Part shown: positions 2,530 through 13,798 of the stretch, piece after piece
Layout of the letters: each line of letters opens with the position of its first letter
Numbering within the stretch: position 1 is the stretch's first letter
Assembly: GCA_019057795.1 (NCBI GenBank)
Contig: JAHLWS010000027.1
Span: forward strand, 1 to 13,934
Direction: 5' to 3'
DNA: 13,934 nt
Origin: Promethearchaeota archaeon
Lineage (GTDB): Archaea > Asgardarchaeota > Lokiarchaeia > Sigyniarchaeales > SOKP01
Program-made: the position numbers and the translations under genes
Notes under the pieces: generated by a model
Seen by the model: only the letters and a program-made list of their open reading frames with translations
Told to the model about the DNA's origin: nothing
Databases searched by the model: none

Positions 2530-3813
2530 TCAGAAGATTGAGAGATTGGATGTAATTATTGTTAAAAAGGTCATCGTGATTAACAGAAAAATAGTTATGA
2601 TGATGTAAAAGACGAGATGAATGACATATACTTTTTTATTTTTATCTTCATTCAATGCTTGAGTTGAATAGAAGATCTTATTTATTATCGCAGCCGATAA
2701 ACCGATGGTTAACATCACTAGTGCATTCCCTTCGTTAATTAAGGATTTAACAAATGCTGTTGCTACAAACAGAGAGGACGCACCGCCGGAAAGAAGCCCG
2801 ATCACAAACACTATAATGTAATAAGCAAGAATATTTATTTCAAAAAAACTTAAAACGATCGATATTATTAAACCAATTAAATAAGTTCCCGAAAAGATTA
2901 AAGCGCTTTTAATTGAGAGGGGGTTTTTGATTTTATCTAAAGTTAATTGAGTTTCTTTTTTTCTTAATACTAAAAATGACCCGATTAACCCAATAGAAGA
3001 TGTAATGAGAATTGGGAACAAGGCATAAAAAAGTAAAGTAGGAGTAATCATTAAAACGATTATCATTCTAATTAGCATAGTCTGAATTACGAGCCAAACA
3101 GCTGAGGATGACGCGCCAGCTTCAGCTAATTCTACAGTTGTAGCTTCACTATGAGCAAAGCCTCCTAAAAAAGAAATATAATATAGATTTTTCTCAGATG
3201 TGCTCCTTAGTATAAAGTAACTAAAATATTTTACAGCTAAAATTATAATGAAAACTAATACTATTGGCTTAATATAAATTTCAAAAACCAGAAAATCGTC
3301 TGGAATTAAAATGTAAAGCAAGACTACGATTGCTATAAATTGAACTGTTCCTGTCCATTCAATATCTTTTAATTTCCTTATTTTATGAAATTGCTTTTTT
3401 GTAGAAAGAATAATTAAGAATATTACGGAAATGGCAATGGCAAGGAGTTCATTGTAATAACACATCGTTCCAACGATCATCGCTAATATCATTGACAGAG
3501 TAGTAGTATAACCCGGATCGTTTTCGCGAAACAATCTATAAACGCTTCCGATCAATAGAAAAACTATCATTCCTCCAAAAAACATTATAATTAACGTAAA
3601 ACCTTCTGATACAGGGAGAAACTTGTCGTGTAATATAATTAAAGATGTAGAAATCATAGAAAAAAAGATGTGATCCCGGGCACCATATTGTGCGCTGACT
3701 CTTGTGCGCTCGATCCCTATAAGAAAACCACAGAAAAAAGATACGATTATTTTAAAAAATAAGATGTAAAATTCATCTGTTGATATTGTTTGTAATAAGA
3801 CTAAGTAAACCAT
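2530..3813 (-). CDS. MgtC/SapB-family membrane protein with DUF4010-like C-terminal region
   Basis: MgtC-type motifs 'GFLIGIER...G.R', 'PGYTT', 'ILSTK..FH', then 'LGGFAHSEATT' and 'NPLSIKSALIF'; multiple TM helices; SD-like GAGGAG upstream. Confidence 0.85.
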   Translation of the reverse strand: MVYLVLLQTISTDEFYILFFKIIVSFFCGFLIGIERTRVSAQYGARDHIFFSMISTSLIILHDKFLPVSEGFTLIIMFFGGMIVFLLIGSVYRLFRENDPGYTTTLSMILAMIVGTMCYYNELLAIAISVIFLIILSTKKQFHKIRKLKDIEWTGTVQFIAIVVLLYILIPDDFLVFEIYIKPIVLVFIIILAVKYFSYFILRSTSEKNLYYISFLGGFAHSEATTVELAEAGASSSAVWLVIQTMLIRMIIVLMITPTLLFYALFPILITSSIGLIGSFLVLRKKETQLTLDKIKNPLSIKSALIFSGTYLIGLIISIVLSFFEINILAYYIIVFVIGLLSGGASSLFVATAFVKSLINEGNALVMLTIGLSAAIINKIFYSTQALNEDKNKKVYVIHLVFYIIITIFLLITMTFLTIITSNLSIF

Positions 3814-11584: not shown

Positions 11585-11755
11585 TTATAAAAAAGGTTTC
11601 CACTCTCCTATATTCATTATTTCTTCTTTATTTACAATCTGAACAGGATGACCAGAATGTAATGAATCGAATTTATCCAATTTTTCTTTATTGATATAAT
11701 TATCCTCAAGAATAGGTACATATTCATGACATTTGAAACATACTTTTAGCCTTAT
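11585..11755 (-). CDS. Small putative zinc-binding protein (CxxC...HxxH), 56 aa, proposed ATA start; absent from the ORF track
   Basis: (I)RLKVCFKCHEYVPILEDNYINKEKLDKFDSLHSGHPVQIVNKEEIMNIGEWKPFL*. SD-like GGAAGTGA at 11768-11761; in-frame TAA directly before ATA; stop lies about 25 nt before the next gene's start. Confidence 0.78.
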   Translation of the reverse strand: MRLKVCFKCHEYVPILEDNYINKEKLDKFDSLHSGHPVQIVNKEEIMNIGEWKPFL

Positions 11756-11953: not shown

Positions 11954-13072
11954 TCAATTTTCAATTTCTTCAATAAATTTAAAGAATAAACCGATTCCTA
12001 CAATTTTAAATGTATCTTGCACATTAATATTGCGTAATGCAGAAATTTCAATAAAAGAACATCTAAGTTCTTCTGCTTTTTTTAAACCTTCTTCTTTTAA
12101 AACTTCTCTTTTATCCGCTAGATCAATTTTATTTCCAATAAGAACGAATGGAATATTTCCTAACTCCTTTCGAGCATCTTTAAACCAAAAATTAATCGCG
12201 TCATCAAATGTATCCCTCTTAGTAACGTCATAAACTATAAATGTACAATTAGCTCCTTTATAATAATTATGTCTAAAACGTTTGAAAAATTTTTGACCTG
12301 CTAAATCATATATTAGAAACTTTATTATATCATCTTTAAAACCTAGGACATAATATTGTTGTGTAGAAATTGATATTCCTAATGTGGAACGATAATCTAT
12401 GGTTTGTTCTTTTTTTAAAAAGCGATTCACTAAAGTAGTTTTTCCTACTGTTGCTGAGCCTAAAATAATTAATTTAAATTGTTTTTGTATTTTTTTGCAT
12501 CTTTTAATTTGATATTTTGTCGTTACACCCTCAATTATTTGATTTGATTCATTTATGGAATAATTATCTAATCCTAATGAAATATCATCATAAATACTTA
12601 AATCTGGAACGTCTAAAGAATTATATTTGAAATCAAAACTCTCTTCAAGCAATTGAGCGATTTTTTCACAAATTAAATAAGCTACTGGAAATAATTTATT
12701 TAAATTGGTCTCATAATTACAAACCAATAGTAAGATTGCTTCAGAACCCACTTCAAGATAAATTAATCTATGATCTAAAGTTTCAAAAGACCCACTTCCG
12801 AAATGTCCTATTTTATATTCTAACCTAATTTTATCCAGTAAATTTTCGACAAGAGTTGTGAGAGCTCCATATACATCATCAATTTCTTCTCTATCACTAC
12901 TTTTATTTTCTAACCTACCATATTTTGATATTAATAGTCCTTGATTCGAATATAAAAAGGCTATTTCTATATCCTCTCGTGATTCTGCAAAATTTTTTAG
13001 TAGAATTCGAATATTTTCTTCTTTCAACATAATTTTGGATAATTTAAGGATAAAATTAATCTTTATTTCCAT
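11954..13072 (-). CDS. Roadblock/LC7 (MglB-like) domain fused to a Rab-like small GTPase
   Basis: N-terminal roadblock pattern (DIEIAFLYSNQGLLIS...GALTT..E.LL.KI..EY..G.FG.G.FE...HRLIYLEVG..AILLLV). C-terminal G1 GSATVGKTT, G2 STLG, G3 DLAGQ, YYKGA, G4 NKID, G5 SAL. Alternative start at ATG 13030. Confidence 0.92.
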   Translation of the reverse strand: MEIKINFILKLSKIMLKEENIRILLKNFAESREDIEIAFLYSNQGLLISKYGRLENKSSDREEIDDVYGALTTLVENLLDKIRLEYKIGHFGSGSFETLDHRLIYLEVGSEAILLLVCNYETNLNKLFPVAYLICEKIAQLLEESFDFKYNSLDVPDLSIYDDISLGLDNYSINESNQIIEGVTTKYQIKRCKKIQKQFKLIILGSATVGKTTLVNRFLKKEQTIDYRSTLGISISTQQYYVLGFKDDIIKFLIYDLAGQKFFKRFRHNYYKGANCTFIVYDVTKRDTFDDAINFWFKDARKELGNIPFVLIGNKIDLADKREVLKEEGLKKAEELRCSFIEISALRNINVQDTFKIVGIGLFFKFIEEIEN

Positions 13073-13083
13073 TTCTTTTTTGT

Positions 13084-13659
13084 TTACCTTAATTTTTTTG
13101 ATTTTTTCTTTAAAATATTTTGTTTAGTTTTATTAAAATAATCTTCATGTTTCATTATGGATCTCGTTAAAAATTCAAAAATCTTATCGACATTTTCTCC
13201 AGTTTTAGAGGAGCATTCGAAATTCTTAACGATTTTATATTTTTTTGAGATTTTCTTAGCGTATTTTCTGGATATCATTCGTTCTTTATGGAGGTCTAAC
13301 TTTCCACCAACCATTAATAGAGGAACTTTCTTCTTATCGTTAGATAAACTGTCATTGAATAATGTTAACCATTTTTCTCCGTTATTTATACTGGAATAAT
13401 TAGTGATATCATACATAAAAATACCTCCTGATACGTCCCTCATAAAAATGGGGAAAATAAATTGAAATTGAGGATCACTTCTAAGATTCCAAATTTGAAG
13501 TATAATTTTAGAAGAATTTATTGTTAAATTTTTTATCGCAATATCTATGCATACTGGTGGCTTTGCTTTCTTTTTTTGAATACCTGCTTGGGGTAACGAA
13601 GTTTTTCCAACATTTCTATCTCCAAAAAGACATATTTTGTAGATTAACTCCTTGCTCGT
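13084..13659 (-). CDS. Atypical Rab/Ras-like small GTPase, 191 aa (extended 72 codons beyond the track's ATG 13443; proposed ACG start)
   Basis: In-frame upstream translation (T)SKELIYKICLFGDRNVGKTSL...CIDIAIKNLTINSSKIILQIWNLRSDPQFQFIFPIF-MRDVSGGIFMYDIT supplies the missing beta1/P-loop half. G4 GGKLD, G5 ECSSK. AGGTG at 13670-13666; in-frame TAA at 13665-13663. Confidence 0.87.
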   Translation of the reverse strand, partial: TSKELIYKICLFGDRNVGKTSLPQAGIQKKKAKPPVCIDIAIKNLTINSSKIILQIWNLRSDPQFQFIFPIFMRDVSGGIFMYDITNYSSINNGEKWLTLFNDSLSNDKKKVPLLMVGGKLDLHKERMISRKYAKKISKKYKIVKNFECSSKTGENVDKIFEFLTRSIMKHEDYFNKTKQNILKKKSKKLR

Positions 13660-13665
13660 TTCTTA

Positions 13666-13670
13666 CACCT
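13666..13670 (-). promoter_or_regulatory. Shine-Dalgarno-like AGGTG preceding ACG
   Basis: Minus strand AAAAGGTG-TAAGAA-ACG matches the archaeal anti-SD complement GGAGGTGA, with the same 6-nt spacing as the ATG genes at 11559 and 7944. Confidence 0.7.
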
Positions 13671-13798
13671 TTTGTTTTGAGTGCATTCAGTAATTTAGCT
13701 AAAATTTATTATTCGTATAGAGCTTTCTATAAACTCATCGATATAATAATCATACCGACAAAATTTTTAATTTTTAATTTTTAATTGAGGAAATTTAT

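Follow-up and report, generated by a model that had tools for sequence, protein, structure and literature searches.

How is the front half of a small GTPase translated when the reading frame that encodes it contains no ATG, GTG or TTG codon? The question is raised by a Rab-like gene in a 13,934-nt stretch of DNA from an uncultured member of the Lokiarchaeia (hereafter the window), which is the whole of a 13.9-kb contig from a 4.95-Mb, 87-contig assembly containing 52-53 Ras-family reading frames. The preliminary description of this DNA, made from the sequence alone, had proposed that the 119-aa open reading frame called at this locus (13443-13084, minus strand, beginning with ATG) is only half of a G domain. 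The Pfam comparison bears this out, as the called frame matches the Ras profile (PF00071) only at profile positions 69-161. The frame is open for 73 codons further upstream and the P-loop lies in this upstream half. Translation of the minus strand from 13084-13722 gives ...KV*ETSKELIYKICLFGDRNVGKTS...LQIW...M(73)RDVSGG..., a single open frame without a frameshift, and the long product aligns with positions 1-161 of the 162 in the profile (E-value: 1e-27, 97 bits against a cut-off of 21.6). The 72 in-frame upstream codons were correctly read, then, as the uninterrupted front half of the domain, P-loop included.

Between the TAA at 13665-13663 and Met73, the minus-strand translation contains no ATG, GTG or TTG, and the first canonical start is codon 73 (Table 1). 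From base composition we estimate that 72 successive codons would be free of both stops and starts by chance with a probability of approximately 1e-4 in this A+T-rich DNA; homology settles that the upstream stretch is coding regardless of this estimate. The GTG that overlaps the Shine-Dalgarno (SD) sequence had been taken for the only canonical codon nearby. It does run straight into TAA (GTG at 13668-13666), but an in-frame ATG at 13686-13684, which opens a 7-codon mini-ORF, had been overlooked.

Table 1. Positions of features at the Rab-like GTPase locus of the window
Feature	Position	Strand	Details and support
Downstream neighbour, 372-aa protein	11954..13072	-	Unassigned N-terminal part, then canonical Ras-family G domain at residues 200-357; same arrangement in L049
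Full frame, Rab-like small GTPase	13084..13659	-	ACG to TAA, 191 codons plus stop; Pfam Ras 1e-27; about 75 orthologs
TTA in place of ancestral stop TAA	13111..13113	-	TAA in the two closest relatives; frame gains 9 codons (A-rich spacer) up to TAA 13086-13084
GAC (Asp75), private to the window	13435..13437	-	Gly in 30/30 other close orthologs; G78D in alignment numbering
ATG of the called 119-aa ORF	13441..13443	-	Internal Met73 of the real protein; frame translation, Pfam match
CCC (Pro23), private to the window	13591..13593	-	Helix after the P-loop; Thr is commonest (24/30 other TAA-clade copies)
P-loop (G1) GDRNVGKT	13597..13620	-	Codons 14-21, upstream of every canonical start; translation, ortholog alignment
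ACG at the ortholog-defined start	13657..13659	-	Relatives have ATG (most), ACG, ATA or ATT
Closing in-frame TAA	13663..13665	-	One codon ahead of ACG; shared by every "TAA clade" ortholog
Mini-ORF, 7 codons (ATG ... GTG TAA)	13663..13686	-	In frame with the gene; in conserved leader
Shine-Dalgarno AGGTG	13666..13670	-	6 nt before the start; hardly varies among 31 orthologs; complementary to the 3' end of this genome's own 16S rRNA (...GGATCACCTCCT)
Two TATA-like boxes, putative promoter	13716..13733	-	Sequence; conserved 75-nt upstream region

Some homologs of the long product are named Rab family GTPases of Promethearchaeota (i.e. Lokiarchaeia), and the ortholog group comprises about 75 proteins. 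Identity to paralogs encoded elsewhere in the genome is only about 40%. By sequence comparison, the gene belongs to a Rab-like family specific to Lokiarchaeia and is complete, with 191 codons. Among solved structures, the best sequence match is the Asgard Rab from Thorarchaeota (PDB 7EZB; E-value: 6.7e-33), followed by eukaryotic Rab7, Rab12 and Ypt7. Like the Asgard and eukaryotic Rabs (Rab7, Rab8 and Rab12), the window protein has a full-domain Pfam Ras match, a G5-like SSK motif and the P-loop GxxxxGK[ST], in which G14, G19 and K20 are invariant in 38 sequences. Unlike those Rabs, the ortholog group as a whole has NLRS at G3, aligned with the DLAG of 7EZB (DxxG), Val throughout in place of the switch I Thr and GKLD in place of NKxD at G4. 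In this last motif Asn is replaced and Lys and Asp are kept; canonical paralogs in the same genome also depart from it, with AKID. The window protein further differs in having no C-terminal prenylation Cys. Because NLRS stands in place of DxxG and Val in place of the switch I Thr, we regard this protein as a divergent, pseudo-GTPase-like member of the family; given its intact P-loop and degenerate switch motifs, it probably binds nucleotide without normal switching.

In four other contigs (L049, at 2961-3320, L056, L060 and L136), a second Rab-like copy lies directly after a gene of the 372-aa GTPase type. In these tandem copies the 3' end of the upstream gene runs into the conserved leader, and the family can be seen to duplicate in tandem.

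The claim that the whole domain can be translated only from the ACG at 13659-13657 is strengthened by the orthologs, which start at this position (ATG, MSKELIYK...), and by the AGGTG 6 nt upstream; in confident genes, spacers between GGTG and the start peak at 7 nt. G005, a genome of the same genus whose DNA is 93% identical here and in the upstream region, carries ATG at precisely the position of the window's ACG, as do G052 and G020. The two closest public sequences, P0003 (96% protein identity) and P0004 (93%), likewise have ATG and begin MSKELIYK. Pairwise comparison with G005 alone could not polarise the changes, both copies having many amino acid changes, and closer relatives were added. 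Because the closest relatives and most of the others have ATG, ACG is the derived state and arose by a T>C transition. The suggested comparison of first codons among relatives thus had a mixed outcome: the start position matches, but ACG is not conserved and represents a recent change from ATG. A nonsense mutation in a longer gene beginning at ATG 13686 was considered and rejected, as all close orthologs share the TAA and show no conservation of the mini-ORF peptide.

ACG at this position is not confined to the window. Two scans that were independent of gene calls recovered about 34 distinct loci with an identical context (GGTG TAA GAA, then the start). Metagenomic alleles of the family number in the hundreds, with 373 candidate loci. 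In the 31-34 closely related genes, about 18-20 copies start with ATG, 5 have ACG at this position, 6 have ATA and 2-3 have ATT, the ACG carriers being the window and four other independent contigs or assemblies (L050, L061, L067 and the second copy in L049). Several database orthologs whose calls are N-terminally truncated although they lie inside contigs hide the same architecture, with ACG (L050), ATA (L052) or ATT (L053) at the start. In L139 (NJBH01000001.1, Loki_b32), the protein CEE43_00005 (175 aa, P0025) is annotated as beginning MSKELIYK where the DNA codon is ATA; at least one deposited annotation therefore already uses a near-cognate start. Ortholog frames are intact at about 175 codons where the contig allows, except in L072 and in L049 copy 2, which has ACG and is truncated at 119 codons. 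A further ortholog copy, L051, is frameshifted.

To place these codons on a phylogeny, a tree of the 31 ortholog genes was used from which the start codon had been left out. A single clade of the five ACG rows was rejected (AU p=0.0012), placing ACG on at least three backgrounds, and a single clade of all non-ATG rows was rejected at p of about 1e-5. The state of the start codon changes at least 12 times on this tree. Given the weak resolution of this tree and the likelihood of recombination, the background counts are minima and not exact numbers of events. No codon within positions -29 to +92 of the 31 orthologs varies more than the start codon, with 5 changes at base 2 and 7 at base 3. Its base 1 is constant, and in the 11 bases immediately before it changes occur only at -9 and -8. 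Only ATG, ACG, ATA and ATT occur at the start site of these orthologs, with no Val or Leu codons.

Near-cognate starts are also found in other genes of this lineage. Three of 52 Ras-family frames in the genome have no canonical start before the P-loop: the window gene, C14:15605 and C31:8537. The latter two belong to families of canonical GTPases represented in about 30 species of the genus, and in most of these the aligned start is ATT or ATA, with ATG, GTG or TTG in some orthologs. Members of both families have GGTG 6-7 nt upstream, a stop 0-15 codons upstream and only exceptionally a canonical start before the P-loop; their frames are intact at 175-200 codons and their N-termini are 83-100% identical. 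From this sequence evidence, the ATT and ATA starts of the two families are conserved and under selection.

A genome-wide census was made of frames with 25 or more codons ahead of the first canonical start, counting codons with an SD motif 5-8 nt before them. Such SD-led codons made up 27/558 of ATT (4.8%), 18/373 of ATA (4.8%) and 4.3% of ACG (n=3) as against 2.1% of all codons; by the same measure, the values for first canonical codons were 8.7% (ATG), 6.0% (TTG) and 4.4% (GTG). N-termini from the census that were read by eye include those of PheRS-beta, TFIIB, an FAD oxidoreductase (GxGxxG motif), UxaA, a class I aldolase and a glycyl-radical enzyme. In a cruder SD-anchored census of all ORF heads, ACG stood at 11.2% versus 8.0%, which was not significant. 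Of 5253 stop-to-stop frames of at least 100 codons, 416 have at least 40 codons before the first ATG, GTG or TTG, where approximately 25 are expected from composition. Part of this excess comes from ATT, ATA and ATC starts, and the remainder may include antisense frames and frameshifts.

The gene for aIF1 (SUI1 domain; G000:C70:199979-199623, minus strand) has a conserved N-terminal zinc knuckle encoded upstream of any ATG, GTG or TTG, with an ATT four codons after an in-frame TGA. This factor, which governs start codon fidelity, itself seems to use a near-cognate start. Taken together, in this organism and its genus, ATT, ATA or ATC behind an SD sequence appears to serve as the start codon of several percent of genes. 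Non-AUG initiation as put forward in the preliminary description is well supported for the lineage, with respect to ATT and ATA; for the ACG of the window it is plausible, but unproven. No special initiator tRNA was seen among the 27-29 tRNAs recovered in the assembly (ARAGORN and Rfam), an incomplete set in which the initiator-like gene found by pattern search has a normal CAU anticodon and GGG/CCC stem. Our literature search found no paper reporting that Asgard archaea use ATT, ATA or ACG as primary starts. The start codons given for archaea in a 2020 review of translation are AUG, GUG and UUG only (PMC7531240), and a Haloferax ribosome-profiling study set near-cognate sites aside.

Elsewhere in the window, a 56-aa CxxC...HxxH zinc-finger gene (11585-11755, minus strand) has ATA at 11755-11753 directly after an in-frame TAA, a further near-cognate start; its ortholog in G005 (L009:1496-1326) has ATG.

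The genome contains a second gene with ACG at an ortholog-defined start. This gene (C52:86064-87194 of G000, plus strand) has 377 codons, is an M24 peptidase or creatinase as judged by eye and has its first canonical start 60 codons in. In the nearest species, G050, the codon is ATA, and in every other species it is ATG or GTG. On its own branch the ratio of private non-synonymous to synonymous changes (N:S) is 4:9, like those of its ATG-bearing sisters. Judging from these substitutions, this second ACG-for-ATG gene is under purifying selection. Two additional candidates were not retained. An AOR-like gene (identified by eye) appeared to have a conserved ACG start in 10 species, but the preceding codon is ATA, or ATG in three species, and its start is better read as ATA/ATG with ACG as codon 2. 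At the neighbouring 372-aa GTPase gene, L049 has ACG for ATG (1831-1833, corresponding to 13070-13072 in the window); this was not decisive, as L054 disrupts the N-terminal extension, and the true start of the gene may be the internal Met15. With regard to gene order, a 377-aa gene lies just upstream of the Rab-like ortholog in G005. The last 142 bases of the window contig (13793-13934) match C52:96054-96194 of the same genome at 92%, and this repeat probably ended the contig.

We consider weak initiation at ACG to be the best reading of these data, and judge it slightly better than an even proposition that the gene is translated weakly and is not dead. This reading is favoured because of the conserved ATT and ATA starts in two GTPase families, the genome-wide enrichment of SD sequences before such codons and the purifying selection on C52:86064. 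The gene is probably still translated because its lineage routinely starts genes at ATT or ATA behind a ribosome-binding site. Under the proposed mechanism, the AGGTG SD sequence 6 nt upstream would set the site of initiation. The start codon, recently changed from ATG to ACG in this genome, would still be used by the SD-placed ribosome with initiator Met-tRNA, both the decoding and its reduced efficiency being our supposition. The result would be a low-expression allele on which purifying selection is weakened.

The strongest rival is loss of the start. On this view the T>C change would have abolished initiation, and the gene would be a silent, early pseudogene of a dispensable, multi-copy, fast-evolving paralog, with a frame that is still open for lack of time. 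We hold this to be a serious contender, though rather less probable than its opposite. That the closest relatives have ATG is in keeping with it, as is the nature of the private coding changes of the window copy (ATG>ACG at the start, Thr23Pro, Gly75Asp at a column invariant in 30/30 other orthologs, and TAA>TTA at the stop), all four of which are disruptive or radical. On the window branch itself there are 2 private non-synonymous and 0 synonymous changes in addition to those at the start and stop, numbers that are too small alone. When copies are pooled by start codon, private N:S is 15:1 for ACG, 70:45 for ATG and 34:17 for ATA (Fisher p=0.012), so that ATA copies resemble ATG copies; the ACG excess is at p=0.057 without the long-branch row L142 in the ATG class. 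The second L049 copy combines ACG with truncation, and the family is tandemly duplicated and weakly constrained overall (N:S about 2:1). The window copy has neither a premature stop nor a frameshift in its 191 open codons, the ancestral stop having been lost instead, but an intact frame says little where there are only 1-5 private changes per copy.

Against loss of the start, ACG occurs on at least three backgrounds, while nonsense and frameshift lesions are present in only about 3 copies despite offering a target that is roughly tenfold larger. Random loss of function is disfavoured because it would mostly yield stops and frameshifts, which are rare here. In addition, every near-cognate at the start site begins with A, the genus demonstrably conserves near-cognate starts, and the other ACG-for-ATG gene of the genome is under purifying selection. 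The preliminary description had named two findings that would count against its proposal: a miscalled base at 13658, or relatives that all have ATG together with accelerated protein change in this copy. The former is unlikely in view of the four other assemblies. The latter is partly borne out, since the closest relatives have ATG, ACG carriers show 15 non-synonymous changes to 1 synonymous and the stop has been lost. These findings are most simply reconciled if initiation at ACG is much weaker than at ATA or ATT, and ACG alleles are hypomorphs under relaxed selection. In annotation, the gene should be given its full length of 191 aa and a non-canonical start, with a flag for possible decay.

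Initiation elsewhere than at ACG is improbable. It could occur through reinitiation or readthrough at the mini-ORF (ATG 13686 ... TAA 13663), at ATC (codon 7), or at ATA (codon 10), which has AAGGAG 12 nt before it. In its favour, conservation of the leader is high and extends to the mini-ORF ATG, from which point on the leader is shared by tandem copies; moreover, Met, Thr and Ile would form an ordinary conservative series if the "start" codon were internal. However, the mini-ORF peptide is not conserved. It is shortened by stops in L061 and L142, and its own ATG is lost in L050 (ACG) and L127 (ATA). Other clades (L151, L078, L155 and L083) have a stop directly before ATT or ATA and no upstream ATG. 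There are no Val or Leu codons at the start site, and codons 2-9 are conserved as protein (K9 is invariant; L6 and I10 are conserved in at least 90%), so that translation must begin upstream of them. Least likely of all is an error in the consensus or sequencing at base 13658 with ATG as the true codon: the contig is short (13.9 kb), the genome is metagenome-assembled with 7.5% estimated contamination and the closest relatives have ATG, but we give this very little credence because the identical ACG allele is found in an identical context in four other independent public assemblies, and the same genome contains a second ACG-for-ATG case as well as ATA-for-ATG cases.

Weak initiation at ACG can be taken one step further. 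It is conceivable, although we are doubtful, that the start codon of this pseudo-GTPase family serves as an evolutionary dosage dial, toggling among AUG, AUA, AUU and ACG behind an invariant SD sequence under selection on expression level. Such toggling might be made possible by a relaxed, aIF1-dependent check of the start codon in Lokiarchaeia, in which the aIF1 gene itself would be near-cognate-started. If this is so, ACG is genuinely decoded in an Asgard archaeon, which would then combine a eukaryote-like repertoire of near-cognates with prokaryote-style placement by the SD sequence.

If SD-led ACG, ATA and ATT starts are real in Lokiarchaeia, gene callers shorten or miss a few percent of Asgard proteins. 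At this locus, gene calling costs a GTPase its nucleotide-binding half, and the same truncation affects several public ortholog entries; inventories of "eukaryotic signature" GTPases are distorted as a result. Start codon stringency would also be relaxed in the archaea most closely related to eukaryotes, a point that bears on the evolution of near-cognate initiation and of eIF1-type proofreading. The natural allelic series at this start site (ATG, ATA, ATT and ACG in one invariant context) is a ready test set for start codon strength.

These starts can be compared with three known situations. With start-codon-loss pseudogenes, the window gene shares a derived single-base change of ATG and relaxed constraint on the carriers of the change. 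Unlike such pseudogenes, it retains an intact frame, the change has arisen on several backgrounds and to near-cognates only, and the lineage uses such codons.

The second comparison is with bacterial starts that are non-canonical and SD-directed, such as the AUU codons of E. coli infC and pcnB; ATT, ATC and ATA are listed as alternative initiators in NCBI table 11. The window lineage similarly places near-cognates at the proper distance from an SD sequence, and the conserved gene set includes aIF1 here. Unlike the E. coli cases, the host is an archaeon with the eukaryote-type factors aIF1, aIF1A and aIF2, and the codon ACG has a second-position mismatch; in E. coli, an ACG start is very weak. 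The share of genes affected in this lineage (a few percent) also appears to be far higher than in bacteria.

The third is eukaryotic near-cognate initiation (ACG, CUG and AUU), in which the initiator tRNA decodes a codon with one mismatch, ACG is usable and stringency is set by eIF1, the homolog of aIF1. In contrast to eukaryotes, the codon in the window would be chosen by SD pairing and not by scanning and Kozak context, and the first-position variants CUG, GUG and UUG are absent at its start site.
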